This document shows positions 48,923-64,000 of a stretch of 64,000 bases of DNA, piece by piece. Made by a program: the position numbers and the translations under genes. The DNA lies in NCBI GenBank assembly GCA_963702025.1, contig OY969699.1:832001-896000 (forward strand), written 5' to 3'. The stretch is from an uncultured bacterium. Its GTDB lineage: Bacteria; Babelota; Babeliae; Babelales; Vermiphilaceae. The notes under the pieces were generated by a model that saw only the letters and a program-made list of their open reading frames with translations, made no database searches and was not told where the DNA came from. Every line of letters begins with the position of its first letter. Position 1 is the first letter of the stretch.

Positions 48923-50647
48923 TTAACCCGCCACGTCGACCATTTTTTTGTATTCACGCAAGAAACTTGCCGCAACATTAGTAGGAACCCTCGAGGTGGC
49001 AGCATGCTCAACAAGAATAACAATCGTTAACGGTTTATGATCTTTATAAGAGAAGTATCCTACAAACCAGCCGTGTTCCAAAAATTCTCTTCCTAGATCA
49101 TGTTTGTCGAGGCTGCTTGTTTGCGCAGTACTTGTTTTAGCATAAATTTTAATATCTTTAATTTGTTTCACCCGTTGTCCCGTTCCTTGGTTAACCACTC
49201 TATACATAGATTGTTGCAGGAATTTACGTGTTTCAGCGCTTATGCCTACCGGTTGCTTGATTACTTCTTCTTCCATTAAGACACGGGGAGTAACCAGAAA
49301 GCCGGTAAATATGGAAGAGATCATGCGCGCAATTTGTATCGGGGTAACCAGTAGATAGCTCTGACCGATGGCAACAGACAATGTCTCGCCCGGCCACCAT
49401 TTTTCATGTTTAACTCTTTTTTTCCATGCCGAGCTTGGAATCAAACCTTCTTTTTCGGCAAAAATAATATCCGTTTTATGTCCCAGACCAAACCGATGGG
49501 CATAATCGGTAAAAAGATCTATACTAATTTTTTTTGCCGTCTCATAAAACATAATATTACATGAATGTGCCAATGACTGCTCGACATTCAGTAAACCATG
49601 ACCGTTTCTATTGTTACACCAGTATTGTCGTCCACTAAATTCAGAAAATCCGCGACAATTCCAACAGCTCTCTTGCTGAATAATATTTGTTTCCAGCATT
49701 GCGCTGACAGTTACTAACTTAAAAATTGAGCCCGGGGGGTAACAGGCATTAAAGGCACGATTGAGGAATGGTTGTTTTTCTTGTAAGGTGCGCCAATCAT
49801 CATCTTGAATAGGCTCAAGAAAGAGTGCCGGATCAAAGTTTGGCCGAGAAAGAAGCGCTACAATATCGCCATCCTGTGGGTCCATAATAATAAATGTGCC
49901 GGTGAACTCTTCAGGAAACACTTTTTCCACAATCGTTTGCAATGAGATATCCAGCGTTGTAGTGATATTTTGCCCGGGCAGGGCCTTTTTAACCTCAGTT
50001 TCGGACAAATTTCTGCCGATCGAGTTTATGGTCTTAACTTTTTGTCCATTTTCCCCTTTTAAAGTTGATTCGCACATTTTTTCAAGTCCCATTTTTCCAT
50101 ACATCTCCATGTCCATGCGGCTCAGATAACCAAGTAGATGGCTTGCGAATGATTTAAAGGGATAATATCGTTTAAAATGGGTGCTAATAATAATATTTTT
50201 CTGATCGGCAAGGCGCTCAACTATTTGGCTTAGCTGTTCAAAAGGAATATCTTCAGCAAGTAGTAACTTTTGGTAGCGTCGTTCCGCATGCCGTAGTTGA
50301 TCAAAAAATTCTTGGTTATTCTGCAATGGTTTACCAATGATGGTTTCTATCAATGATACGGTTTGCAATTGAGTTTGCGTAAATTTTACGCTGCCAGTTC
50401 CTTGCCAGTAAATATTGGTGGTGGGGCGGTTGGTGGCAATGAGTTGATTATTGCGATCAAGAATATTGCCGCGTAATGGTGCGATAGTTTCAACGCGCAA
50501 AAAGTTTTTTTGGCTCTTTGCATAAAGATCTGATCGCAACATGATCTGTAATTGAAAAAGCCTGCCTACAATTATGAGTAAGCCCACAACAAGTGCCCAA
50601 CAAGCGGTCCTTATTTTTGGTACAAGAATAGTGGGTTGATAAATCAT
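48923..50647 (-). CDS. mrdA: penicillin-binding protein 2
   Basis: RGNILDRN, RYYP, GKMGLE, YPPGSIFK (SxxK), SCN, IGQ, KTSTAQ, HGWF. Confidence 0.88.
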   Translation of the reverse strand: MIYQPTILVPKIRTACWALVVGLLIIVGRLFQLQIMLRSDLYAKSQKNFLRVETIAPLRGNILDRNNQLIATNRPTTNIYWQGTGSVKFTQTQLQTVSLIETIIGKPLQNNQEFFDQLRHAERRYQKLLLAEDIPFEQLSQIVERLADQKNIIISTHFKRYYPFKSFASHLLGYLSRMDMEMYGKMGLEKMCESTLKGENGQKVKTINSIGRNLSETEVKKALPGQNITTTLDISLQTIVEKVFPEEFTGTFIIMDPQDGDIVALLSRPNFDPALFLEPIQDDDWRTLQEKQPFLNRAFNACYPPGSIFKLVTVSAMLETNIIQQESCWNCRGFSEFSGRQYWCNNRNGHGLLNVEQSLAHSCNIMFYETAKKISIDLFTDYAHRFGLGHKTDIIFAEKEGLIPSSAWKKRVKHEKWWPGETLSVAIGQSYLLVTPIQIARMISSIFTGFLVTPRVLMEEEVIKQPVGISAETRKFLQQSMYRVVNQGTGQRVKQIKDIKIYAKTSTAQTSSLDKHDLGREFLEHGWFVGYFSYKDHKPLTIVILVEHAATSRVPTNVAASFLREYKKMVDVAG

Positions 50648-51567
50648 ACGGTTCTTTTATTTTTTAATTGGCTGTGTATCGGATGAATAGTGTCACAGAG
50701 TTTAGATAAATCCTCAAGATTTACATGAGTATATTTTTCCGTGCTGGCTAACGTTTTATGGCCTAAGAGTTCTTGAATGGTGCGCAGATCCACACCTTGA
50801 TTGAGCAAATGGGTGGCAAATGAATGGCGTATTTTATGGGGGGTGATGCGGCGTTCGAATTTTAAAAATGAGCGAAACATTTCAAAAATGCGTTGAACGC
50901 TTCTCACGGTGAGTGCCTCATCACGGTTATTTAAGAAGAGATGTTCGGCGGGTGATCCCGGTTTTTGCCGTTCCTTTTCAAGATATTGCGTCAGTTTTGC
51001 TTGCGCCTTTTGCCCAAACAACACAATCCGTTCTTTCCTTCCTTTGCCCCGAATGCGGATTGTTTTATTCAGTAAATCGAGGTCTTTAAATTGAATGCCC
51101 ACCAATTCCGAGCAGCGGATGCCCGTAGCATAGAGCAGCTCAAAAATTGCTTTATCACGTAACGGCTTTTTAGTTGGCATTTTGTCATCAGCGATAGTGT
51201 CTAATAGAAAAAATATTTCATCGACACTTAAATACACCGGTAGTTTTTTATCAAGTCGCGGACGTTGTAATTTAAGTTTGAGTATGATCCCTTGTGATTG
51301 CAAAAATTTTTCAAATGTTTTAAAACAAGAAAATTTGCGCGCAATGGTCGCCTTATCAATTTTTTTATGAAACAGATTTACCAGATAACGCTCGATAATC
51401 TGGCGTGGCGCTAAATGATCTTTATCTTGTTGCGGTAATGAATCCCAGAATAAAAAAAATTGTTTTAAATCGCTTTCATAAGCGCGAAGCGTATGATCGG
51501 AAAGATTTTTTTCCACTTTGAGAAACGCGATAAAATCTTTTTTATAATTTTGCAATTGCTGGTACAT
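50644..51567 (-). CDS. xerC: tyrosine recombinase XerC/XerD
   Basis: RDKAIFELLYATGIRCSEL, GKGRKER, PHKIRHSFATHLL, LLGH, TEKYTH. Confidence 0.85.
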   Translation of the reverse strand: MYQQLQNYKKDFIAFLKVEKNLSDHTLRAYESDLKQFFLFWDSLPQQDKDHLAPRQIIERYLVNLFHKKIDKATIARKFSCFKTFEKFLQSQGIILKLKLQRPRLDKKLPVYLSVDEIFFLLDTIADDKMPTKKPLRDKAIFELLYATGIRCSELVGIQFKDLDLLNKTIRIRGKGRKERIVLFGQKAQAKLTQYLEKERQKPGSPAEHLFLNNRDEALTVRSVQRIFEMFRSFLKFERRITPHKIRHSFATHLLNQGVDLRTIQELLGHKTLASTEKYTHVNLEDLSKLCDTIHPIHSQLKNKRTV

Positions 51568-51935
51568 TAACATGCAATACACTCAATTTCAATCAATGCA
51601 TTTTTGGGCAATCGTGATACGGCAATGCAACTGCGTGCGGGCCGGTGATCAGCAAAATAGTCGCCATAAATTATATTTACCGTATTAAAATCATCCATAT
51701 TAGTTAAAAAAATTGTAGTTTTCACAACATTTTTTAATGTTTTATTATCAACGGCAAGTATAGCTTGGATATTTTTAAAAATTTGATGTGTTTGTGCATC
51801 AACGGTTTGGGCAAGAATCATTGATGCGGGCTCAAGTCCAAGTTGTCCACTTAAAAAGATGAAGCCGTTGATGCCAATTGCTTGGCTGTAGGGGCCGATT
51901 GCAGCCGGCGCTTGTGCCGATTGTATAATTTTCAT
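51567..51935 (-). CDS. ridA: RidA/YjgF family enamine deaminase
   Basis: APAAIGPYSQA, SGQ, VVKTTIFL, PARSC, LP..IEIE. Confidence 0.92.
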   Translation of the reverse strand: MKIIQSAQAPAAIGPYSQAIGINGFIFLSGQLGLEPASMILAQTVDAQTHQIFKNIQAILAVDNKTLKNVVKTTIFLTNMDDFNTVNIIYGDYFADHRPARSCIAVSRLPKNALIEIECIAC

Positions 51936-52150
51936 AATTCTCTTTCATGGTATGAATTACAAAAGATCATACAAAAAAGATATGCGAATCGTCTAGCTAA
52001 AGCTGAGAATTCAATAGACTTCTTCTTCAAATGCCTTTTCTTGCGGGAGCGCTTTGGTTGCGTGCAGGCCAATGACCACCCAAAATAATCAACATAAATC
52101 ACATTGGCTAGCATAGAATTATCCATGTTTGTGAGAAAGATGGTAATGCG

Positions 52151-53668
52151 TTATCTATTTTTTAAGAATTCAAAGAGCCGCTCTACTTTTGTTTTTTCAC
52201 CTTCTTGCTTTTTTTCTTTAGAAAGCCAATCTTTAATGATCTCTTCAACAATTTGGTTTAGTTCTTGTTTATATTTCGTTTCAGAGGCGAGAGCTTTTTC
52301 AGGATTTATATGCGGTGTTTTATAAGTAATAATCTTTACTATTTCGGGGTCCATGAGCATTGAATATTTTAAATAGATTCGTGCCTGAACTTCATCCATA
52401 ATAGTCAAGGGAATTTGGCCAGGGTTATCTTTTAAAATACTAAGATATTTTCGAGCGCTTGGCCTGCCAAGGTGAGAGTCATATATTGCTTGTTCTAAAT
52501 GAATTCGCTTTTTGTTGATCGTCTCCTTCAGCTTTTTCGATAAATCTTGGTAATCTATAATGGAAGGATTATTAATATAGAGTTCTTGTAATTCATCATC
52601 TTCACGAGAGTTTGGATTTATGTCGTCGTGAAAAGAAAAAAAACTGCCACATGGTTCAGCTAGATAGACAAGGTTATCTACAACGGAGGGATGAATAAAA
52701 ATTTGACAAAGCACTCCCAGTTTTGTTTCATTTTCTTTTTCAGAGTAAACATGTTTATAACTAATTTCTGATATATAATCAGTATGAATTTTGATTAGTG
52801 CCTTAATAAATTTTGTATTAAAATCAAAATATTTAAAAAATTTTTCTAATTCCAATTCTAGGGAGGTATCCCTTCGGCTGTTTGCGGTAACAAAATAATA
52901 CCAAGAGTTTTCATGTCTTCGTTCTATGTTTCCAAATAATGAAAGATTTGCGGATAATAAATTGGTACGCACTGATGTTAAATGATCAAAGGCTTGTCGG
53001 GCTCCGGCAGATTGGCAGAGAGTCATAGCATCTTGTACCGTCTTTGCTGAGGGATTATGCTTCATCGAAGATTCATAAAGATCATCTTTTTGAAGATCGC
53101 TTTTTAAATATGCATCAATCGTTTCATATTCTTGAGTATTGTTTGAAAATAACCGCAAAAATTTAGTCTGTTCATTGGGTTTCTCTAATTTCATCCATCC
53201 ATACAATGTATGCATAATATCATGAATTAGTGTGAGTGCGCCTTTTTGGCCATGATAAAAAACATTATAATTCCAATTTTTTTTTTCTGTATCTAAAATT
53301 TGTTTCGCAAGAGTTTTATATTGAGATTCCCTAGATTTTATAGTTGCTATATATTTAGGAGTTGATAAAGCGCCGATTATTCCTGAAATTGCTAAGTTTA
53401 CATATTCTTCAGTAGTTTTTCCCGGACCAAAATAAGTCTCTAAATGAGCTAATGATTGCGTATTAATATCTGCTGGCATGAGTTGCGGTATAATTTGTTC
53501 TTTTTTAGCAAAACGAGATTTCAATTCTTTAAGTAACGCAATTCGTTGTTTAACCTGCGTCCATAATTCTTCTGCTGTTCGCGGTTGTATTTGTCTAGGC
53601 AACGGTTTTTCCATAGCAATTATTGGCATGACTATCAATACGATACTGATTGCAAATCTTAAATTCAT
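52151..53668 (-). CDS. secreted hypothetical protein (possible ADP-ribosyltransferase-like fold)
   Basis: Signal peptide followed by MEK; AGGAG RBS; VFYHG, LLSAN, LCQIFI, EVQARI. Confidence 0.65.
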   Translation of the reverse strand: MNLRFAISIVLIVMPIIAMEKPLPRQIQPRTAEELWTQVKQRIALLKELKSRFAKKEQIIPQLMPADINTQSLAHLETYFGPGKTTEEYVNLAISGIIGALSTPKYIATIKSRESQYKTLAKQILDTEKKNWNYNVFYHGQKGALTLIHDIMHTLYGWMKLEKPNEQTKFLRLFSNNTQEYETIDAYLKSDLQKDDLYESSMKHNPSAKTVQDAMTLCQSAGARQAFDHLTSVRTNLLSANLSLFGNIERRHENSWYYFVTANSRRDTSLELELEKFFKYFDFNTKFIKALIKIHTDYISEISYKHVYSEKENETKLGVLCQIFIHPSVVDNLVYLAEPCGSFFSFHDDINPNSREDDELQELYINNPSIIDYQDLSKKLKETINKKRIHLEQAIYDSHLGRPSARKYLSILKDNPGQIPLTIMDEVQARIYLKYSMLMDPEIVKIITYKTPHINPEKALASETKYKQELNQIVEEIIKDWLSKEKKQEGEKTKVERLFEFLKNR

Positions 53669-53685
53669 ATATCACTCACTCCTTC

Positions 53686-54513
53686 TTATGATCCTTCAGG
53701 ATACACATCTTCTTCAGATTCCACAAAAGCTTCTCTTTCAGGTAATGCATTAATTTCCTTGCTTAGCTCATTGATCTGTTCTTTAAGTTGTTCATTGCTA
53801 AAGTTCTTATTTTCTTCAAGCCACCAAAGTGCCTTTTTTCTATCTTTATAATATCGGCGAGAGATACGTGGCCACACCCGTGTTTCATAGACTTTAAAAA
53901 CACTTTTATCTTCTTCCGGCCAGTTCACATAAGCACTGCGATCTAATTTTTCATTTAATGCAACCTCAGCAATGCCCAAAAAGGTGCTGTACCGTTCATA
54001 AAAATCCATTAACTGATAAAAAAATTCGATATCATTATTCGAATAGCCAAAAAGTTTCCCCGATAAATACCAGTTGGTGCTAAAATCATTAGTTTGTATT
54101 CCGCGAAGATGGTCTTCGAGACTTGATTTTGCTTGCAGCAGGGCATTGCGTTCCCCATGAGGCCTATAGGCATACACGTTATTGCCTTTGCCGCCAAAAA
54201 AAGAATTATAGTCAGGTTCCAATACGCTGATGTTGCTCTCTTTAAATAATTTTTTTAATGCCGGATCTATGGTAGCCAGAGATTCTTTTGTCGTGTAAAC
54301 GTGATCCCTATAGCCGACCAGAAGGCAGGCAATTTCCGCATTGGGATCATAAGGTGGGGTAATTGTTTCTTTATTAAGACCCCTGCGGCAGTCTGGCGTA
54401 AGGTTATATTGTACCTTTAGGGCCTCAATTTCCGTGTCGGTCTGCGGAACTTCCATGCCAAGTAATGGCAGAAATAAAAATGCGGTTATTATACTTATTC
54501 TTATGGTTTTCAT
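53686..54513 (-). CDS. secreted hypothetical protein
   Basis: Signal peptide followed by MEV; GAGG RBS; GKLFGY..DIEFF motif. Confidence 0.68.
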   Translation of the reverse strand: MKTIRISIITAFLFLPLLGMEVPQTDTEIEALKVQYNLTPDCRRGLNKETITPPYDPNAEIACLLVGYRDHVYTTKESLATIDPALKKLFKESNISVLEPDYNSFFGGKGNNVYAYRPHGERNALLQAKSSLEDHLRGIQTNDFSTNWYLSGKLFGYSNNDIEFFYQLMDFYERYSTFLGIAEVALNEKLDRSAYVNWPEEDKSVFKVYETRVWPRISRRYYKDRKKALWWLEENKNFSNEQLKEQINELSKEINALPEREAFVESEEDVYPEGS

Positions 54514-54660
54514 ATGGTTACCTCTTTGTAATTATTTCATAATATAAGTGTACTAAATATAGTTTATTAAAATCAATGATATTTTCAGATAGAATGCGAA
54601 TTTGGATGTTTTTTGTGAAAAAAGGGCTTTATTATAAGGTTTTTTATTGGTAGGGAATAA

Positions 54661-54741
54661 TAGATCTCATGCGTAATAAGCAGGTGTAAAATTAAATTAT
54701 CAAAAATCCATTCGTGGTGTTGTCGATTGCGCATAAGGGTA
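54661..54741. mobile_element. internally deleted MITE subfamily B relic
   Basis: tagatctcatgcgtaat ... ccattcgtggtg ... attgcgcataagggta resembles the ends of 13029..13230. Confidence 0.5.
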
Positions 54742-54752
54742 TAATGTACCGA

Positions 54753-55280
54753 CTATATTTGATGTGAAATTTCGCGAAGAAATGTTCGGACTGCTTTATC
54801 TCTGCTTAATTTAGATTCCATTCTTTTGTTGTAATAGCGTCCTTTATAAATATTTTTTATTCCCGCATACGTTAAACCGGTCGAAATTAGAATAGCTGGG
54901 AGTTTTATACGCTCACAATATTTTTGATCCAATTTATATAACCCGTAACAGAGACCTGCTGATGCAGTTAGTTCTGTAATTCCCAGCAGTATTTTATCCG
55001 GCGCAAAAAGTTTTTCTGCTTTAGAACCATTATGCTCACGCTTAACTATTGATTGTTCAATAAGGTCTAAATATTGGCTATTGTTAGAAATAAGATTCGC
55101 CATAATTTTTTCATTTTCTTGAGTTGATTTATTTTTTTTGAGGATGAGGTCGTATAGTTTGTATCGCGAATAAAATTTATTAATGATAACTAAATCTTTA
55201 ATGCTTTCCAGCAGTGGCTTTCCTGCATGTGCCGAACTAAAAATAAATAAAAAAAGTGGCGTATATATAATCTTGTTCAT
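54753..55280 (-). CDS. hypothetical protein (signal peptide, 2 hydrophobic segments)
   Basis: AGGAG RBS; SAHA cleavage-like motif. Confidence 0.62.
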   Translation of the reverse strand: MNKIIYTPLFLFIFSSAHAGKPLLESIKDLVIINKFYSRYKLYDLILKKNKSTQENEKIMANLISNNSQYLDLIEQSIVKREHNGSKAEKLFAPDKILLGITELTASAGLCYGLYKLDQKYCERIKLPAILISTGLTYAGIKNIYKGRYYNKRMESKLSRDKAVRTFLREISHQI

Positions 55281-55346
55281 AAAACTCCTGTAACGTGATG
55301 CATCTTAAATTTTTAGATCCAATATAATTTATCAGTTTAATTTACA

Positions 55347-55375
55347 TTGACAAGCATCATGGAAATTGCGATATT
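55347..55375 (+). promoter_or_regulatory. sigma70-type promoter for the AAA-toxin locus
   Basis: TTGACA-N17-GATATT with TGn directly before the -10, 40 nt before ATG 55416. Confidence 0.5.
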
Positions 55376-55415
55376 GGCCAAAGTGTTTTTTAACATATCT
55401 AACCAGGTCGATACA

Positions 55416-56519
55416 ATGAACAAAAAATTTTATGCATCACTCATTATTACTGCTTGTTTTACACTTAATGGGATGGATAGCAAGATTGAAAAAGAAAAAC
55501 TTGAAACCAAGAATCTCCAAATTCTAGAGACTGAACCTATTTATCGCAATGAAAATAATGTCGACAATAACAATGCTGTTAGTAGTCAGATTATTGATCT
55601 TATTAAAACGTTAGATGGAAAAGAAAAAGATTTTCACATGCCTGATTTGCAATTGCTTCCTACGCAAGGAATAGCGCAATTATATGATTCATTTACCATA
55701 AAAGAATCACTCGATAGTTGTTCACAGGAGCTTTTGGAGACAATAAATGCTATGGCGCAAGGGAAAAAAGGCATAAACCCATTGACACGGGCACTCCTCA
55801 TTGGGCCTCCTGGTAGCGGAAAAAGTTCTTTAGCGCGCGTAATCGCATATAAATGTAAAAGAGAATATCTATTTTTAAAAGCCTCTTCATTGGGGAATGA
55901 ATACAGAAATTCTTCGGTAAAAATTATTGATAAAATATTCGATCCTTTATTGAAATCTAAAATATCTGTGGCGATAATATTGGATGAAATTAATTCGTTC
56001 ACTAAGCAGTTTGGTAACGAAAATGATACTGATCGTGGTGTTGAGCATCTCTGGACAAAGCTCGATGAATGTAATCAAAATCCAGAATTAATGATTATTG
56101 CTACGGCCAATTCAACGAAGCAAATACCATTTACGATTAAAGATAGGTTTTCCGGAAGCATATTTTATATACCGCTACCAGATGATAATGTTCGGGCACG
56201 ATTTTTTGTAAATTATTTTTCGGATTACGCAACATTTGAGCAAAGGCACTTGCAATCTTTAGTTGAACGCACAGACTCTTTCAGTTTCAGAGAGCTAGAG
56301 AAGCTATTCCTTGCAGCAAAAAATAAGGCGATTTTTAGAAAAAAGGATGATAATAAGTTAATAATAACCGAATATGACATTGAATATGTTCTTATGACAC
56401 TCTTAAGGGAGCATAAACAAAAATGTTCAGAAGAAAATGCCAAAAATTTTAATGAGAAATTGGAAAACATTTTAATAGATACTATCTTCCGCTTGTTAAT
56501 CTTGCCATATCCCATTTGA
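55416..56519 (+). CDS. AAA+ ATPase with N-terminal signal peptide
   Basis: MNKKFYASLIITACFTLNG-MD; Walker A GPPGSGKS, Walker B IILDE, sensor ATAN, Arg finger DRF, FSFREL. Confidence 0.85.
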   Translation: MNKKFYASLIITACFTLNGMDSKIEKEKLETKNLQILETEPIYRNENNVDNNNAVSSQIIDLIKTLDGKEKDFHMPDLQLLPTQGIAQLYDSFTIKESLDSCSQELLETINAMAQGKKGINPLTRALLIGPPGSGKSSLARVIAYKCKREYLFLKASSLGNEYRNSSVKIIDKIFDPLLKSKISVAIILDEINSFTKQFGNENDTDRGVEHLWTKLDECNQNPELMIIATANSTKQIPFTIKDRFSGSIFYIPLPDDNVRARFFVNYFSDYATFEQRHLQSLVERTDSFSFRELEKLFLAAKNKAIFRKKDDNKLIITEYDIEYVLMTLLREHKQKCSEENAKNFNEKLENILIDTIFRLLILPYPI

Positions 56520-56917
56520 TACAAGTATTGGGTCATCTTGATCAACGAACGCTAACTAAAGTATACCAATCGGTATGCTTAGCCCTTCAAAGCAAAAGCG
56601 CACAAGATTCTCTTGCTTTGCAAAAAGTGGGGCAAGAACTAACATTAATGCAAAATGAGAATCACTATGAAAGAACATATGACCAAAACGAAAGACACTA
56701 TAAGGAAACAACTGCCGTACAAGAAAAGAATCGCGCGGAAGATGTAGTAAGAACGGAACGGCATCAAAAAGAATCGCTTGCTCAGCAGGATAAGTGGGAA
56801 AAGATAAAATTAGGGGTTAATGTTGTGACTACTATTGCTACTTCTTTTTCGCCGTTAGGAGCTATTAATAAAGCTTTGGATATGGCAAATAGACTTGCTA
56901 ATTATTTTTTTAAATAA
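56516..56917 (+). CDS. hypothetical protein; probably the frameshifted C-terminus of the AAA ATPase
   Basis: TTG start with no RBS; frame open from ~56455; E(N/R)H(Y/Q) repeats and a hydrophobic C-terminal helix. Confidence 0.55.
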   Translation: MIQVLGHLDQRTLTKVYQSVCLALQSKSAQDSLALQKVGQELTLMQNENHYERTYDQNERHYKETTAVQEKNRAEDVVRTERHQKESLAQQDKWEKIKLGVNVVTTIATSFSPLGAINKALDMANRLANYFFK

Positions 56918-56927
56918 AAAGGAAAAT

Positions 56928-59900
56928 ATGGCTCTTCATAGGTTTCTCACAGTATTAATTTTCTTTCTCACAACAACAAATGGAATGGAGAAAGTTAATA
57001 CCTTTAAGCAAGCGGCTTTTTTTCAAGCGATAATTAATAAAGAGATTGCAAAAATTGTCTATAGCGGCGACTACTCATTTAAAAATGCGAATAGCAATCT
57101 CCTTGTAACAGGATTGCAGTGCATACAAAATTCACTTAATATGCCTAAAGAATTAACCGCAAACAGAACAAGTTGTATTGTAATTGATAATTGCTCAAAA
57201 TCGGCTACAAATACTTTTTCGCTTTCGGGATATTCTGACCCGCAGAAGCTTACCTCATCATCGAATCATGGAGTTGGGACACCTATCTTTGGCCGAATGA
57301 GCTGGTTGCCGCCATCATTAGCTGCTTATAAGAGCAAGGGTTTTTTATATCCTGAAAAAATAATGGAAATTCGCTCAAAGATGATCGGTTATGAAATTAA
57401 TCATGCTATAAATGCCCTTCGTAGATTTGAAAGTAATTGCAAAAACATAAAGTCATCTGTTGATTTTATAAATGCAATAAGGGAGCTCAAAGATTTAAGT
57501 AAGTTGACCATTTCCGTTCCATGGTTTAATAATTTCCTTAAAGAAACAGTTAATAAATTGCAAAAAGAAACAAGCACTGCTAATGGATTTCTTAAACCTA
57601 TTACAACCAACGCAAAAAAAGTAGCAGATATTATTGATAATTTCCAACAAAGAACAATTAAGTGGTGCCATGATTATAACGATAGTTTGTGGGATATGGG
57701 CTGCAAAGCTATCGATTGGATTGATGGGGACCATGGTATTATCTCGCAATGTTATTGTGATGTGCAAAAATTTTGGGATCTGTATGGCGAGCAGCTAAAA
57801 AATAAACCTGCACATGACATTGTCTATGCAGGTCCATGGGGCTGGGAATTCACTGAAATTGCACCTTCCCCTTACGATGCCCAATTTCAACAAAAAATTG
57901 CTGAGAACCCTCAAAGCAAAGCTTTTTTGACTTTAGCTAAACTTGCATCAGAAAAAGATTGGCAAAAGATAGAAAGCTTTGCTCTTGAAACAAAAAATAG
58001 CCCGGGCTACTCAAAAGAATTTCAAAAATTTTATTCTGAAATTTTTAATCACAATTTTAACGATCAACGTCTTAATAAAAATCTTATCCGTGAAAATGAT
58101 CCGTTTTGTCAGCAAAGTTTAAAAGAATTGCCTCGATTAAAGCCAAATGATATAATGCCAACTGCTCATCCGGTTAACCAAAAGTTGGCTGAGCGTGTTG
58201 AAATATATGACACCCTAATGCAAAAATTGGGCATCGAAAGTCCGAGCAAAGAGATACAAACTGTGCTTTATAATTTAGTTGATGTCCTGCAAAAAAATGA
58301 TCCGCAAGAATTTGTAAATATCTTAATCTCTCAACTCAGCTGTGATCATGCCGATCCAGCGATAAGAAATCTTTATAATAAAATTCATACTGACGGCTTG
58401 TGTAACCTGCTTACCTATAATAATCCGGCAACTACTATAAGAATGAGTGAGCAAATTGGATTAAAACGGTATGAAAAGGAACGAACACTCCTTTTTAATC
58501 TGGCAACATGCTCCATTGATTCTCCTGCTAAAGAAACTCATGTAACAACGGCACTTAATTATTTGAAACAGGGTATTGGTAATGATCCTCTAGCAAAAGA
58601 ATATCTCACGCTGGCTCATGCTACCGGCAATGCGCTTTTATCTCCCGAAGGTAACCAAGCGGTCTTGAATTTGGCCGATTATAGCCAAGTGCCGACCAAT
58701 GATCAACAAAGAATAATTCATACAGCAGCAACCAAAATAATTGCCGATAACCTTGAGGTTATATCCGAAAATGATAATTCGGAATTGTGCGCGAACTCAA
58801 CCAACTTTAAAGCACTCGAAAAAATAGATGCGGCATATAAAGCAATGTTGGAAGGCAATCTTCTTGCTCAAGATTATCTGGATCAAGTATTGCTCTATGG
58901 GTCTGCCAACGAAACTAGCTTAAACATTGATTTTGGTGGACCGAGCCAAAGTTGCATACAAATTGATGCTGAACTAAAAAAATTAGCCCGTGAGGCAATC
59001 TATAGCAACACCGTTTCAAAAGAGTTTCAACAACTTTTCACTAAAGATTTTTTCAATAATTTCACTGACCAGGGATTTGATAAGTATTTAGTTCGAGAAA
59101 ATGATCCTTTTTATCAAAAGCTTAAGAATGAATTACCGTCGCAAAGGCTTGAAAATATACCGACAGCTTGTGCATATAACCAACAACTTGTCCAACGAAA
59201 TAGCATTTATGACAATATAGTCAAAAAGTTTGCAATCGAAAATCTAAGCAAAGAAGTACAAGCTGTACTTTATACATGGGTTGATAAAATCCAAAATAAC
59301 AATTGTCATGATCTAGGAAAACTAATAGTTTCTCAACTCAGCAGCGATCATGCCGAGCTGGCAATCAGGGATCTTTATAATAAAGTTCATACTGACGGGT
59401 TGTGCAATTTGTTTACCTACAATAACCCGGGAACAACGATAAAAATCGGTGAACAAATCGGATTGCAAAAACATGAAAAAGAACGAGCATTACTTTACAA
59501 CCTTGCAACATGCACCATTGCTTCTCCTGCCAAAGAGGCACTCGTAACAACCGCTCTTAACTATTTGAAACAAGGTATTAGTAATGATCCCTTGGCAAAA
59601 GAATATCTTACGTTGGCTCATGCGACCGGCAATGCGCTTTTATCACCGGGTGCCAATCGAGCAGTATTGAATTTAGCTGACTATAGCAAGGCGCCAATCG
59701 ACCCGCAACAAAAAGCGATCCATGCAGAGGTAACCAAAATAATTGCCGACAATCTTGAGGCTATTTTAGCAGGTAAAAGCTCGCCTTCTTCCAAATTAAC
59801 CGGCATACAGGCGATTCGAAAAGTTGATGCTGCTTACAAAGCAATGCGGCAAGGAAATCCTCAGGCGCAAGATTATCTTGAGCGGGCCTTATTGGTAAAC

Positions 59901-61322
59901 GGTGTTAATCAAAATGTGCTTAGTGTCGATTTTGATAAGCAAGCCGAACTCTTCAAAGAAATGGGAGTAGATAGAGTTGTTAATGAAATTGCTCGGATGA
60001 AAACGACCAATGAAAATCTGCAACAGTATGGCATTAAAATATGTAAAGAAATTGAAATTGACTATAAAATAACCCAGTTCATGGTAGAAAATAATTTGAC
60101 ATTAGAAAGATACACTCAATTCTATGGCAATGAATTACAGCATAAGATTCATGACGGCACGATTAAAATTATTTACGCAACATATGATTTGGTAAAAAAC
60201 CGGTCAATCGAAAGATTAGACAAATTCATGCTGGACAACATCAAAGACACCGTTTTACAAACCAATGATCTTGCGCTAAGTCATAATGTTGTGGGTGATG
60301 TTCAACAAGCGGCGGTGCTTTCTAATTTCTGTTGGCAAATTATCGATTTTGCCGAACGGGCAGTGAATTTGTCCGGGGAAATTGGTTTGGCTGCCGGCCG
60401 AGGCATCATCTCGGGGGTGCAAGAAAAAGCGATAGATCTTTATCACATTGCATCCGATCCGGTTGGCGCTGCTAAAGGATTGGTGACCTCTTTAGGGAAT
60501 CTCTGCGTTGTGGGGCAACAGTTGGTTGAGCAAAATAGAAAAATGCATGAGCTGCTTTTAGCAAGCCCAATGAAAACGCCATTCCCGGCTCTTATAGAAA
60601 TGAACAAGCAGAGCAGTGAACTCTTTAACTCGGTAATTGATTTTGCCAAACGGGAGGGAATAACCGGCATTGTTGAAAAAAGTGCCCACCTAGGCACAAC
60701 CACGGCGCTTGACACGGTACTCATCAGCAAAGGAGCTACGGTTCTTAATAAGGTTGCAAAAGTTGCCAGTAGCTCCAAAATGGGCGAATTCTTACAAAAA
60801 ATAACAAATGCGGCTAACGCAACAGAAATTGAAGCGGTTACGGCTGAAGGAATTAGCGCAAAAGTTGCTCAAAATGCTGAAAATTCTTTACTTAGTGAAG
60901 CAAGAGATGCTTCGGTAGCCTCGGTGCGCAGGGAACAAATATTACCAAAGTTTGATACTTATGAGCAAGCTAGAAATAAGGCTTTGGAAATAATAGGAGA
61001 TGTTAATCCCCATTCTGCAATGCCAATAATTGGAAAACAAGGTGTATGCAAGGGTAAAATTGTTGGCCAGCAGTGGTGTAACGGTAAAGTTACTTTAAGA
61101 ATAGATCATGATCTGCTTAAGGGGCCTCATATTAATATAACAGATTTTCGTGTGGCAAAAGGTTTAGATGGAATCGCAATAGCTATCCCCTTTAATGGAG
61201 ATGCTCAAACTATAAATTCATTACTAAAACACTTGAATACGCCGGCAAGCCTTTCGGCTGCAAAAGCAATTCTTCAAAAAAATGGGAAACTGGATTATTT
61301 CAATAAACTAATAGGAAACTAA
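56928..61322 (+). CDS. large secreted polymorphic-toxin-like protein with C-terminal nuclease-like domain
   Basis: AAGGA RBS; signal peptide followed by MEK; two ~335-aa repeats; A/G-rich pre-toxin helices; C-terminal YEQARNKAL...GKIVG...RIDHD..KGPHIN; followed by an immunity-like gene. Confidence 0.78.
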   Translation: MALHRFLTVLIFFLTTTNGMEKVNTFKQAAFFQAIINKEIAKIVYSGDYSFKNANSNLLVTGLQCIQNSLNMPKELTANRTSCIVIDNCSKSATNTFSLSGYSDPQKLTSSSNHGVGTPIFGRMSWLPPSLAAYKSKGFLYPEKIMEIRSKMIGYEINHAINALRRFESNCKNIKSSVDFINAIRELKDLSKLTISVPWFNNFLKETVNKLQKETSTANGFLKPITTNAKKVADIIDNFQQRTIKWCHDYNDSLWDMGCKAIDWIDGDHGIISQCYCDVQKFWDLYGEQLKNKPAHDIVYAGPWGWEFTEIAPSPYDAQFQQKIAENPQSKAFLTLAKLASEKDWQKIESFALETKNSPGYSKEFQKFYSEIFNHNFNDQRLNKNLIRENDPFCQQSLKELPRLKPNDIMPTAHPVNQKLAERVEIYDTLMQKLGIESPSKEIQTVLYNLVDVLQKNDPQEFVNILISQLSCDHADPAIRNLYNKIHTDGLCNLLTYNNPATTIRMSEQIGLKRYEKERTLLFNLATCSIDSPAKETHVTTALNYLKQGIGNDPLAKEYLTLAHATGNALLSPEGNQAVLNLADYSQVPTNDQQRIIHTAATKIIADNLEVISENDNSELCANSTNFKALEKIDAAYKAMLEGNLLAQDYLDQVLLYGSANETSLNIDFGGPSQSCIQIDAELKKLAREAIYSNTVSKEFQQLFTKDFFNNFTDQGFDKYLVRENDPFYQKLKNELPSQRLENIPTACAYNQQLVQRNSIYDNIVKKFAIENLSKEVQAVLYTWVDKIQNNNCHDLGKLIVSQLSSDHAELAIRDLYNKVHTDGLCNLFTYNNPGTTIKIGEQIGLQKHEKERALLYNLATCTIASPAKEALVTTALNYLKQGISNDPLAKEYLTLAHATGNALLSPGANRAVLNLADYSKAPIDPQQKAIHAEVTKIIADNLEAILAGKSSPSSKLTGIQAIRKVDAAYKAMRQGNPQAQDYLERALLVNGVNQNVLSVDFDKQAELFKEMGVDRVVNEIARMKTTNENLQQYGIKICKEIEIDYKITQFMVENNLTLERYTQFYGNELQHKIHDGTIKIIYATYDLVKNRSIERLDKFMLDNIKDTVLQTNDLALSHNVVGDVQQAAVLSNFCWQIIDFAERAVNLSGEIGLAAGRGIISGVQEKAIDLYHIASDPVGAAKGLVTSLGNLCVVGQQLVEQNRKMHELLLASPMKTPFPALIEMNKQSSELFNSVIDFAKREGITGIVEKSAHLGTTTALDTVLISKGATVLNKVAKVASSSKMGEFLQKITNAANATEIEAVTAEGISAKVAQNAENSLLSEARDASVASVRREQILPKFDTYEQARNKALEIIGDVNPHSAMPIIGKQGVCKGKIVGQQWCNGKVTLRIDHDLLKGPHINITDFRVAKGLDGIAIAIPFNGDAQTINSLLKHLNTPASLSAAKAILQKNGKLDYFNKLIGN
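58011..59933 (+). repeat. two intragenic repeats, period 1005 bp (335 aa)
   Basis: SKEFQ starts at 58011 and 59016; TTALNYLKQGI.NDPLAKEYLTLAHATGNALLSP present in both. Confidence 0.92.
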
Positions 61323-61329
61323 GGACCAT

Positions 61330-61749
61330 ATGGAAAAAACATTGTTTGATGAGTGTGTAGAACAACTTAAGCAAAATGTTCTAATTTTAAATCCAGAAGA
61401 TTCAAACAAAATATCGCAATTATTTGAAAATACTTACCCGCTTACCGAATGGGGGAAAATTGATTGGGATAGAATAAATAAAAAAAGTTTTATAGGTCAT
61501 GATCGCACCCGCATTTTACCAGCATTAGAAAAACTTTTGGGAAGAAATGAATTTGATAAATCTGTCTATATAGAATGGAGTGAAGCAGGTATACCTGTTA
61601 TTAAGACTGATTTAGATTTAGTAGTAAAATTTTTTGATGATATAACGTGTGTAGCTTTTGAAAAATTTATTTTTAATCCTCCACTTAGATATATAATAGA
61701 GGTTCGCCATCTTGGCGATATAAATGTTGGGGTGCTTAATGAAAAATAA
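61330..61749 (+). CDS. putative cognate immunity protein (CdiI-like)
   Basis: 139 aa, acidic/aromatic, 7 nt after the toxin stop, no signal peptide; TLFDEC, GKIDW, IPVIK, FDDIT recall CDI-type immunity proteins. Confidence 0.72.
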   Translation: MEKTLFDECVEQLKQNVLILNPEDSNKISQLFENTYPLTEWGKIDWDRINKKSFIGHDRTRILPALEKLLGRNEFDKSVYIEWSEAGIPVIKTDLDLVVKFFDDITCVAFEKFIFNPPLRYIIEVRHLGDINVGVLNEK

Positions 61750-61826
61750 TGAATTTAAAGCCGTTATGAAAATAAAAATCCTTATAAATAATCCATAGAA
61801 AGTTTGTCAAAAACAGAAGGAATCTT

Positions 61827-62375
61827 ATGCGCAAATTATTGTTTACACTTTCACTTATCAGCCTCAACACCTTTGCGCATGATCTTATTGAAAAGGCGAT
61901 TTTAGAAAGTAACCTTGAGGCTTTCACCGCTGAAATTGAAAACAGAAAAAGAATGCAGAGACCCTTAACGCCAAATGAACAGTTAAAATATTTGGATCTA
62001 AGTAAAGAGGTTGTTATACGGCGGAGAGATCAGCTGGAACTGCCGCTAGAAAATACCGCTATGAAATCTGACGATCAAGAGATTTCACCTTTAGCATATC
62101 TGCAAGGTTTTTTTGGTACCATCGGGCTACTGGGTATCCCTTTCGCGGTGTTTATAGAATTGTTTGCGCCAAACAGTACTTATTCTTCCCAAAAAAAAGC
62201 TGCGTTACTTGCCGGCGCGGCAATAGCTGAAATCCCTTTTTTATGGATGGTGGCAAATTATGGCAAAGAAGTAGAAGAAAAGAAAAAGATCCGTGAAGCA
62301 AAATATGACAATGCGCTCAAAATACGGCAGATATTGTATGATAATCTCACTATTTCTGCAGAAATAATTAGATAA
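61827..62375 (+). CDS. hypothetical protein (signal peptide, 2 TM)
   Basis: AAGGA RBS; NTFA cleavage-like motif; two hydrophobic segments. Confidence 0.65.
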   Translation: MRKLLFTLSLISLNTFAHDLIEKAILESNLEAFTAEIENRKRMQRPLTPNEQLKYLDLSKEVVIRRRDQLELPLENTAMKSDDQEISPLAYLQGFFGTIGLLGIPFAVFIELFAPNSTYSSQKKAALLAGAAIAEIPFLWMVANYGKEVEEKKKIREAKYDNALKIRQILYDNLTISAEIIR

Positions 62376-62390
62376 GCTGAGGTAATACAC

Positions 62391-62642
62391 ATGATAATAA
62401 TATGGGGCTCCCGATCAATCCGAAAAGATGAAATGAGTGCACATTTTGATTGTATGGCGTGCAATCAGCCACAAGAAATGAAAATAGTTTCTTTTCGCAG
62501 TTGGTTCACTTTTTTCTTTATACCTGTTTTTCCCACCTCGAAGAAAAAGTTTTACCTCGAATGCATCAACTGTGAAAATACCTATAAAATTAAAGATGAT
62601 ATAAAAATTGAAGAACTTTTAGAAAAAGAAAATGCTCGCTAA
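62391..62642 (+). CDS. zinc-ribbon domain protein
   Basis: IIWG, CMAC, WFTFFFIPVFP, CINC. Confidence 0.8.
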   Translation: MIIIWGSRSIRKDEMSAHFDCMACNQPQEMKIVSFRSWFTFFFIPVFPTSKKKFYLECINCENTYKIKDDIKIEELLEKENAR

Positions 62643-62648
62643 TAGCTG

Positions 62649-62710
62649 CTCCATCCGTGCGGAGTTTATCCCGAGCTTTCTGTCGAAGGGCGCACTATAG
62701 AGGCGAACGG
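62649..62710. repeat. REP-like element between convergent genes
   Basis: gcggagtttatcccgagc..gtcgaaggg as at 6500; ends gcgaacgg. Confidence 0.7.
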
Positions 62711-62720
62711 AAAAAATTTT

Positions 62721-64000
62721 TTACATATCCAAGTTGTATTCTTTGCAACGCCTATTTACTGAGGAGCGGTTAACACCCAAAAAAGTGGCTATTTTGTTCT
62801 GATTTTTAAATTTGTTCCAAAGCAGAACCATTATTTTTGGGTCACGTAACGCATGTTTGCCCAAGCGGCTGGCTTGCAGCAGTTCAGGGTCAGTAATTTC
62901 ATAGGCAGGATTAAAATGGATTTCTTGTTCAATATTATTCTTTTTCGATTTTTGTGCCAGTAATTGTTGAATGCGGACTTTGAGTTCTTGGAGGCTCAGT
63001 GGGCGATTCTCCATGAGCTTTTCGCATTCTTTTGGTGTTAAACCAAGCAAATTTTTAAAATCATTGGTGCCAATTGCTTGTTCTGAATATCCTTGTGCCA
63101 ATTCGCTCAATTCTGTGTCGGGCAATTGTGCCAGTGATGGCATACAAACGGCGCATTTTTTGAGTTCATTAAATAAGGAAGGAGAGAAGGCGCCTTGTTC
63201 AACGAGCTTTTCTAAGCTGCAATCGGTTGAACAAATAATGCGCACATTGGCGGATATCTTGTGTTCGCTTTTATAAACGCGATAATAACCGAATTTAATA
63301 AATTCAGCCAAATATTCCTGCAAATCAAGAGCAAGGTTCTCAATGTTTTGAATAAAAAGTGTGCCGGTGCCATCAAGTTTTTCAAGAACAGGTTTTTGCT
63401 GAGTCGGTGTGCCAAAAATAGGATTTATGCCTAAGAGTTTAGTTGCTAGCTCCAGAGTATTAGCAGATTCGGTGAGATTGAGTGTTAAGAGTGTTTCTCG
63501 CATGCTGATATGATGCAAAAGTTCCACCATGGGCATCAAATCTTGCTCGGGTAGCTCCAACAGTGTTGCCTTTTTGCTGAGTGCCGTTTGCAAAAGGCTA
63601 ATTTTGAAATGGAGCAATGTTTGCCCATTGCCCGGAATGAGCTGATTAATAAGCTGTCCCGGTTTGGTAGTTTCTAAATAGAGTACGTAATCCCAGGTTG
63701 AGGGATCTTTAAGGACTGAAATTTGTTTGGTAATAATATCGCCAATATCCGGATGACTCACTGTTATTATGACATTATTTTGTTCAAGATTCAGCACGCC
63801 CGTGATGCAATATCTATTGCCGATAGTATCTTTGGCAAGCAGCGATTGAGGCGATTTATATTCTTGCACTTGCCGTGCAACCTGACGAATTGTTTTGGCA
63901 ATCGGATGACCATGTTCGGTGTTGAGATTAAACTGAATCATCTCTTTGGCCGCATGGTTTGCACAAATAAAGCGTCTGTTTTTATAAAAAATTATGCCAA
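62721..64000 (-). CDS. degenerate sigma54-activator-like AAA domain with Fis-type HTH (5' end outside window)
   Basis: GTLFIQNI..L...LQ, NVRIICST, GAFS..LF; HTH NQNKIATFLGVNRSSVNRR; the frame stays open to the window edge (GIIFYKNRRFICANHAAKEM, PAS-like). Confidence 0.75.
   Translation of the reverse strand, partial: GIIFYKNRRFICANHAAKEMIQFNLNTEHGHPIAKTIRQVARQVQEYKSPQSLLAKDTIGNRYCITGVLNLEQNNVIITVSHPDIGDIITKQISVLKDPSTWDYVLYLETTKPGQLINQLIPGNGQTLLHFKISLLQTALSKKATLLELPEQDLMPMVELLHHISMRETLLTLNLTESANTLELATKLLGINPIFGTPTQQKPVLEKLDGTGTLFIQNIENLALDLQEYLAEFIKFGYYRVYKSEHKISANVRIICSTDCSLEKLVEQGAFSPSLFNELKKCAVCMPSLAQLPDTELSELAQGYSEQAIGTNDFKNLLGLTPKECEKLMENRPLSLQELKVRIQQLLAQKSKKNNIEQEIHFNPAYEITDPELLQASRLGKHALRDPKIMVLLWNKFKNQNKIATFLGVNRSSVNRRCKEYNLDM

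Follow-up and report, generated by a model that had tools for sequence, protein, structure and literature searches.

Lineage-specific polymorphic toxins exported by Sec, such as Neisseria MafA/MafB (PMC3482391) and the S8-PTS of Gram-positive bacteria (PMC9424270), are the closest described counterparts of a locus found in the Babeliota, a phylum of obligate intracellular parasites with protists as hosts (PMC12172432; PMC6561590). The locus lies in a 64,000-nucleotide stretch of DNA (the window) from an uncultured member of the Vermiphilaceae, comprising positions 832,001 to 896,000 of contig OY969699.1 in assembly GCA_963702025.1. The source genome (1 contig, 1.60 Mb, 39% GC, 95% complete) is labeled G000, so that the window is G000:C1:832001-896000; L-numbers denote fetched loci, other G-numbers denote other genomes compared, and positions without a contig label are those of the window. 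On the forward strand, the locus encodes a signal-peptide AAA+ ATPase, a long carrier protein ending in a predicted toxin tip, and a small immunity protein. We consider it probable, with appreciable reservations, that together these constitute a Babeliota-specific, Sec-exported polymorphic toxin with its antidote and an exported ATPase that, within the protist host, helps carriers of the long form.

Comparison with described systems

The MafA/MafB system shares with the Babeliota locus the signal peptide, the lineage-restricted carrier, the variable tip and the immunity gene, as well as orphan cassettes and an upstream gene for a secreted partner (PMC3482391). In the Babeliota, however, this partner is an AAA+ ATPase rather than a lipoprotein and is not obligatory. 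The MafB N-terminal domain (PF06255) was recovered by Pfam in 0/21 and 0/22 members of the carrier family and not at all on the window carrier; a MafB look-alike of the carrier in the ESM Atlas (0.86) is a lead only. In the S8-PTS, a secreted enzyme likewise accompanies a signal-peptide polymorphic toxin and its immunity protein, and the tip families EndoU, ColD, ColE3 and Ntox35 are shared between the two systems (PMC9424270). They differ in that the accessory enzyme of the Babeliota is an ATPase and not a subtilase, the carrier appears helical rather than of the BetaH type, and the producer is a two-membrane intracellular parasite. No S8 peptidase was found among the locus proteins with Pfam, the neighboring enzyme matching PF00004, and BetaH has no profile in the libraries searched.

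The tip and immunity protein are clear homologues of the CdiA-CT/CdiI pair of PDB entry 5T86, but the remainder of the locus is unlike contact-dependent growth inhibition (CDI; CdiBAI, type Vb). In line with a preliminary description of this DNA, a Pfam scan of the large protein at E≤1 detects no RHS, haemagglutinin, LXG, PAAR, VENN or Hint, and the TpsA domain is likewise lacking. No CdiB/TpsB is encoded at the locus; PF03865 (ShlB) is unmatched in the genome as a whole, but control genomes are equally silent. The absence of RHS and PAAR sets the carrier apart from Rhs effectors of type VI secretion systems, whose component VipB had no match in the source genome (the control was positive in E. 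coli), and the presence of a signal-like N-terminus in place of LXG distinguishes it from LXG toxins of type VII secretion systems. An analogy for the ATPase is offered by HSP101 of the Plasmodium PTEX complex, an exported or membrane-linked AAA+ unfoldase that serves protein transport in the host cell, and by p97/VAT, which the Babeliota ATPase core resembles. Unlike these, the Babeliota protein has a single AAA domain, an NEY(K/R)NS pore-loop region and one conserved Arg in the finger region.

Within the phylum, the AAA-Ulp1 family of Babela also combines signal peptides with AAA domains and is predicted to act in the amoeba cytoplasm; compared by description only, it differs in being composed of peptidase fusions, and the available parts of that report mention no toxin link (PMC4378268). 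AAA fusions of 1080-1500 aa with CaaX-like ends, seen at L065:12045-16553, L071:1703-4939 and L024-type loci, may be representatives of this family. In the literature searched (mostly open access, supplements excluded), the weapons and export described for Babeliota are limited to two toxin-antitoxin pairs, ankyrin effectors and export by Sec/type II; neither polymorphic toxins nor AAA genes linked to toxins are described there for this phylum, and a toxin-associated, Sec-exported AAA+ ATPase is likewise missing from it. These genes may figure, unrecognized or under a name, in the gene lists of the Babela and Chromulinavorax papers or of further comparative work. The system joins the lineage-specific Sec-exported polymorphic toxins exemplified by MafB and S8-PTS, among which its new carrier and its unusual partner set it apart.

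The toxin tip and its immunity protein

The tip (aa 1336-1464; 60933..61322, + strand) is a CdiA-CT homologue, with residues 1336-1437 matching 5T86 chain A (E 2.9e-18). It keeps R1391-x-D1393, H1401 and N1403, and the motifs previously quoted for the large protein and its tip are all present. The next gene (61330..61749, +) starts 7 nucleotides (nt) after the carrier open reading frame (ORF) and encodes a 139-aa protein without a signal peptide, which belongs to the CdiI_ImmP family (PF24172, the “EcoliA0-like” CdiI; E 1e-32) and matches 5T86 chain I (E 1.2e-5). Hence, the suggestion of a known-type warhead paired with its cognate immunity protein is borne out, and in the Babeliota relatives scanned a tip of this type is again followed by PF24172 (3/3; L039, L073 and L116). 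Tips of the 5T86 type were also encountered in 19 plasmid records, with LXG, SLH and PT-TG carriers among the matches listed (the best 15 of 19), and, in four further taxa, on carriers of other kinds. Given this spread over several carriers and taxa, the tip is, judging from homology, a mobile and known warhead. The 5T86 fold has been classed as BECR, with a structural homologue, Salmonella Rhs2, that depends on one Asp and one His residue and is an EF-Tu binder (10.64898/2026.05.10.723254), and has been classed as VOC in another paper (PMC9424270). By virtue of homology, the window tip likely cuts RNA.

A carrier spread through the phylum, with interchangeable tips

The large ORF (56928-61322, +) encodes 1464 aa, beginning with a signal-like start with a hydrophobic h-region and a unique N-terminal part (aa 1-346; 56928..57965) that is weakly conserved among long carriers. 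The two 335-aa repeats reported earlier were recovered as module A copy 1 (aa 347-669; 57966..58934) and copy 2 (aa 681-1002; 58968..59933), which are 57% identical with a period of ~335 aa. The aligned relatives possess one module A or none; the tandem copy is specific to the window protein, and we accordingly rejected the repeat as a family trait, regarding it as a local duplication. There follows the helical module B (aa 1003-1335; 59934..60932), which is defined by the family motifs GNxxQxxxHxE, N..G....A, CW..LD, GxxxG and HPIxT, and carries a TAEG junction at aa 1305-1308 shortly ahead of the tip. An alignment of the module B core has invariant G, Q, H, E, N and P residues. The G-x3-Q-x3-H-x-E signature is invariant and is accompanied by a conserved Asn and often a Cys in short carriers, with Gly replacing the Glu in the window copy; these residues could be a metal-binding or self-cleavage site.

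The delivery chassis had been called unrecognized, and we too recovered no accepted match for the carrier family in Pfam, NCBIfam, PDB or phages. The best PDB matches, a designed helical protein (E 2.6e-4) and haemagglutinin HA2 (E 0.016), were rejected as composition matches. A tip-less alignment of 21 carriers matched 99/261 phylum genomes and, in a full hidden Markov model scan, 898 representative proteins, of which 10 looked up by cluster carried no taxon names; the family is too divergent for a word-indexed search, which recovered no protein with this alignment. The profile of the module B core reached 106/261 phylum genomes, with up to 12 matches per genome. Outside the phylum, the carrier core was found in 0/401 and 0/301 genomes drawn as samples from the two phyla to which an Acinetobacter and a Sporosarcina record belong, and the carrier in 0/4 non-Babeliota proteins bearing the tip; its range there rests on these samples. 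On this distribution, the carrier appears, at the level of sequence, to be a phylum-specific and new carrier domain among polymorphic toxins.

The C-terminal polymorphism expected of such a family is readily observed in relatives. Near-identical carriers end in different tips in L047/L050 (BLAST E 0, aa 15-628) and L039/L058 (E 0, aa 5-924), and tandem carriers with different tips occur in L109, L115 and L122. L115:4586-15353 comprises four tandem carrier-immunity pairs with near-identical module B, different tips and no AAA gene. Among loci picked through the carrier, 22/63 tips match Pfam (EndoU 8, Ntox17 6, Ntox35 4, Colicin_D 1, Cytotoxic 1 and DUF4258 2) and 41/63 do not; the tip range of the family also includes colicin E3-like versions. 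A small same-strand gene lies ≤60 nt downstream of 58/65 carriers, and the downstream genes (n=61) include 2 with PF24172 and 3 with DUF2247. By a heuristic criterion, a signal-like h-region is present in 61/83 carriers and 70/77 AAAs and in 8/76 of the next genes. Orphan tips and strings of immunity genes are found in L037, L043 and L104, with an orphan EndoU tip downstream in L037. In the source genome, C1:471398-476090 holds, by eye, a transposase-like gene, small immunity-like genes, a tip-like fragment and a hairpin paralogue extended to 418 aa. By its sequence features, the carrier family is a true polymorphic toxin family, and we hold with considerable confidence that it is a functional one.

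The AAA+ ATPase and its frameshift

The gene at 55416..56519 (+; PF00004, E 1e-20) encodes the 367-aa N-terminal part of the ATPase. Its core keeps G130, K136, D190, E191, N232 and R244, with GPPGSGKS as Walker A and IILDE as Walker B, and in the family alignment presents the classical AAA+ signature of Walker A/B, sensor-1 Asn and Arg finger. It is a classical AAA of the p97/VAT/FtsH type, with VAT/p97 as the closest PDB matches; in the pore-loop region, the aromatic residue is kept (NEYRNS) and the Val-Gly is not present in the alignment. The typical family member consists of a signal peptide, a single classical AAA domain and a hydrophobic post-lid helix, to which a Gln-rich tail is often added. 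Extra FtsH-like proteins with a signal-like start, one of them a 337-aa form without the protease part, are found in several Babeliota (L168, L171, L172, L174 and L176) and are a possible source of the secreted AAA family.

In the window, the AAA ORF ends at 56519, 408 nt upstream of the large ORF. The −1 frame is open from ~56456 and encodes the conserved post-lid helix, a Gln-rich coiled region and a terminal hydrophobic helix (56456..56917, +); within it, a 133-aa ORF runs from TTG 56516 to 56917 and ends 10 nt before the carrier gene. Since this frame matches residues 390-456 of the intact 535-aa AAA of L039 (E 4e-5), and since the closest homologues, by eye, continue with the same helix motif, the window AAA gene is frameshifted. 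The signal-like N-terminus, Walker A/B and R244 stand as first described, but the gene is not intact, the preliminary description having read across the frameshift; similarly, of the tight packing that it reported, the 7-nt gap between carrier and immunity gene holds, but the 10-nt gap belongs to the 133-aa ORF and not to the AAA ORF. The frameshift may be an assembly error or a real mutation, either being compatible with the short-read contigs (from four low-share DNA runs of one study), the sole one of which to reach it ends within ~10 bases.

Of the four AAA genes of this type in the source genome, two immediately precede a carrier; outside the window locus, the genome has two intact paralogues that possess tails. 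At G000:C1:281780-287951 (−), a second locus comprises a 551-aa AAA, a 727-aa signal-peptide carrier, three small genes and a 369-aa AAA; this carrier is of another type, related to that of L048, with an HExxE-like tip. G000:C1:958343-961426 (−) combines an intact AAA gene with three flanking paralogues of the 182-aa hairpin gene described below and no toxin, which suggests either that AAA and hairpin genes form a unit or that a toxin has been lost from this locus. A CaaX terminus is a host prenylation signal, and CaaX-like ends are found in 6/77 AAAs versus 19/1025 other ORFs (p 0.006), pointing to the host cytosol, where ATP is available; the window copy is without one.

Linkage of the ATPase to long carriers

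A protein search with the AAA matched 33/261 phylum genomes, and 40 regions were taken around the matches; a carrier lay directly behind the AAA gene in 18 of these and within five genes in 8 more. To avoid circularity, 60 further regions were hand-chosen from the upper hit list of the carrier, in two of which an AAA match on the same contig was already known; they held 66 carriers, 6 of which were left out as cut by contig ends or truncated. Among the carriers of ≥850 aa (n=20), an AAA was directly upstream in 11 (including two with AAA tails at contig ends and one with a split carrier, judged by eye), within four genes in 4 and absent in 5, and among those of <850 aa (n=40), the corresponding figures were 1, 1 and 38. 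In all, 23 pairs with the AAA on the same strand, directly upstream of the carrier and mostly with gaps of <100 nt, represent at least 6 families at ~20-30% identity. The AAA family also heads other carrier types (L064, L048 and L066), one of them Hint-bearing: at L064:2633-5692, the AAA gene overlaps a gene for a 413-aa toxin with PT-HINT and Ntox21. Six large genes located immediately downstream of AAAs were dropped as unrelated or unassignable (L041, L056, L060, L063, L065 and L068).

Several findings weigh against an obligate or general role of the ATPase and, with it, against parts of our interpretation. Besides the 38/40 short and 5/20 long carriers without a nearby AAA, 14/40 AAA-picked loci have no nearby carrier; the 850-aa cut was set post hoc and related loci lack independence, yet the same contrast is seen in several families. 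Four of five carrier-rich single-contig genomes (G243, G241, G122 and G121; 8-10 carrier matches each) yielded no member of the AAA clade, only FtsH and FtsH-like ATPases. Covariation of AAA and carrier is weak (rho 0.23, p 0.04, 24 pairs, no kinship correction), and we rejected specific AAA-carrier coevolution on this account. In a tree of 93 cores (FastTree, midpoint root), the AAAs form a large radiation separate from FtsH, within which those next to carriers fall at scattered points; in some of the latter, the Walker motifs are degenerate (L128 and L102). With regard to the toxin itself, no activity is known to have been published for the 5T86 fold, and sources disagree on its class (BECR, 10.64898/2026.05.10.723254, versus VOC, PMC9424270), and nothing that we found explains how a Sec-exported protein enters another two-membrane bacterium. 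The conserved linkage of the AAA gene that had been proposed therefore recurs in several families and in 15/20 long carriers but does not extend to the short ones, and the notion of a general delivery motor required for all carriers fails on the short carriers, the four carrier-rich genomes, the carrier-less AAA loci and the frameshift. Given the dependence of linkage on carrier length and the genomes without the clade, the ATPase is best read as an accessory of the long carrier form and not as a universal motor. That it is a true partner of the long carriers seems to us a fairly probable, if contestable, proposition.

The same data could be accommodated by a real toxin-immunity pair next to an independent family of host-directed effector ATPases, co-located through shared variable islands and inherited as a block. 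The size of the AAA radiation, many members of which lie apart from carriers, the convergent, downstream and tandem arrangements of AAA and carrier genes, the genomes in which carriers occur without this ATPase, the CaaX ends pointing to host membranes, and the broken AAA gene beside an intact toxin and immunity gene are all in keeping with such an explanation. We nevertheless regard it as rather unlikely in light of the 23 direct-upstream pairs spread over at least 6 divergent families, the strong dependence of linkage on carrier length and the recurrence of the AAA family ahead of other carrier types, including the Hint-bearing one. A further alternative is that the locus is decaying, with the ATPase a pseudogene and the carrier no longer deployed; a frameshift in an assembly with few frame changes (1/170 conserved loci tested) and split carriers in relatives (L051, L101 and L204) would agree with this. 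It is improbable, however, since neither the 4.4-kb carrier nor the immunity gene is broken, AAA forms of only 320-390 aa also occur beside carriers, two intact tailed paralogues persist elsewhere in the genome, and the frameshift itself could be a single-base assembly error.

A model for toxin action inside the protist host

Returning to a Sec-exported toxin assisted by an ATPase, the secretion genes of the source genome include two secretins and no match to TrbI, and three TLC genes (ATP/ADP translocase family) are also present; for Babela, type II secretion is described as the only such system, along with secreted AAA-fusion proteins (PMC4378268). We propose that the carrier and the ATPase would leave the cell by Sec and then probably reach the host cell through the secretin (type II-like) system. 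Module B might then contact and enter a rival bacterium or its membrane, whereupon the tip beyond the TAEG junction would block translation. The cytoplasmic immunity protein would guard the producer and its clonal siblings, from which it follows that the main target would be non-kin Babeliota or another bacterium in the same host. Such an antibacterial target is argued for by the presence of immunity genes, the swapping of tips and the orphan cassettes, all marks of bacterial conflict, given that host-directed effectors of endosymbionts are typically without immunity genes (PMC3482391). The ATPase, anchored by its C-terminal helix (with a prenyl signal in some relatives) and fueled by host ATP, may unfold or strip the extra N-terminal part that is present only in long carriers, at a host membrane; this is the most speculative step. 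As the window AAA gene is split, this job would fall to its 367-aa product or to the intact paralogues elsewhere. A bolder version, which we consider unlikely, is that a secreted, host-membrane-anchored AAA+ ring burns host ATP to unfold long toxins and thread them across a membrane, with the hairpin proteins as pore or adaptor.

In another reading, the tip is directed at the protist itself (at RNA of the cytosol or mitochondria, or toward lysis or addiction), with the ATPase aiding host-membrane crossing and the immunity protein guarding only against toxin that folds before export. In its favor, the life style of Babeliota is that of lytic parasites inside cells, the host mitochondrion wraps around growing Chromulinavorax (PMC6561590) and an addiction role has been proposed for the polymorphic toxins of a Bodo endosymbiont (PMC8163844). 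We regard it as very improbable: the tip swapping, the up to 12 carrier matches in one genome and the orphan immunity genes fit bacterial kin conflict, the usual absence of immunity genes from host-directed effectors speaks against it, and CDI, Rhs-type and LXG systems use the same tip.

Neighboring genes and regulatory elements

The promoter-like element noted previously is present as a sigma-70-like candidate (TTGACA-17-GATATT with extended TG, 10/12 consensus matches; 55347..55375, +) that ends 40 nt upstream of the ATG at 55416; such sites are in only slight excess (41 counted versus 31±5 in shuffles) and are weak evidence alone. No Rfam match was obtained across window positions 52000-64000. 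Downstream of the immunity gene, 61827..62375 (+) encodes a 182-aa signal-peptide protein with, by hydropathy, a two-helix hydrophobic hairpin. It has 7 copies in the source genome and 7 in relatives of the genus, the latter all within AAA- or carrier-picked loci, and is hence a recurrent neighbor of AAA/toxin loci in the genus. The same-strand run is closed by a gene for an 83-aa zinc-ribbon protein (PF17032; 62391-62642), which is a single copy in the genome. On the other side, a divergent gene (54753-55280, −) encodes a 175-aa signal-peptide protein, one homologue of which sits between the AAA gene and the carrier in L079. Farther upstream, a XerC-like gene (50644-51582) is up to 77% identical to Babeliales/Dependentiae/TM6 homologues, its closest named relatives, which places the source genome in the Babeliota (TM6).

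Implications

The Babeliota are an entire phylum of protist parasites for which almost no weapons have been described. A carrier found in ~40% of the phylum genomes and equipped with many tips implies routine conflict of bacterium against bacterium inside protists. It adds a new carrier domain to the catalogue of polymorphic toxins, and the 41/63 tips without a Pfam match, along with their partners, supply new toxin and immunity families. If the ATPase does act on the toxin in the host cytosol, it would represent a new way to power toxin delivery. Should the threading ring prove real, these intracellular parasites would fight with a motor assembled outside their own cell, a delivery route peculiar to the Babeliota.

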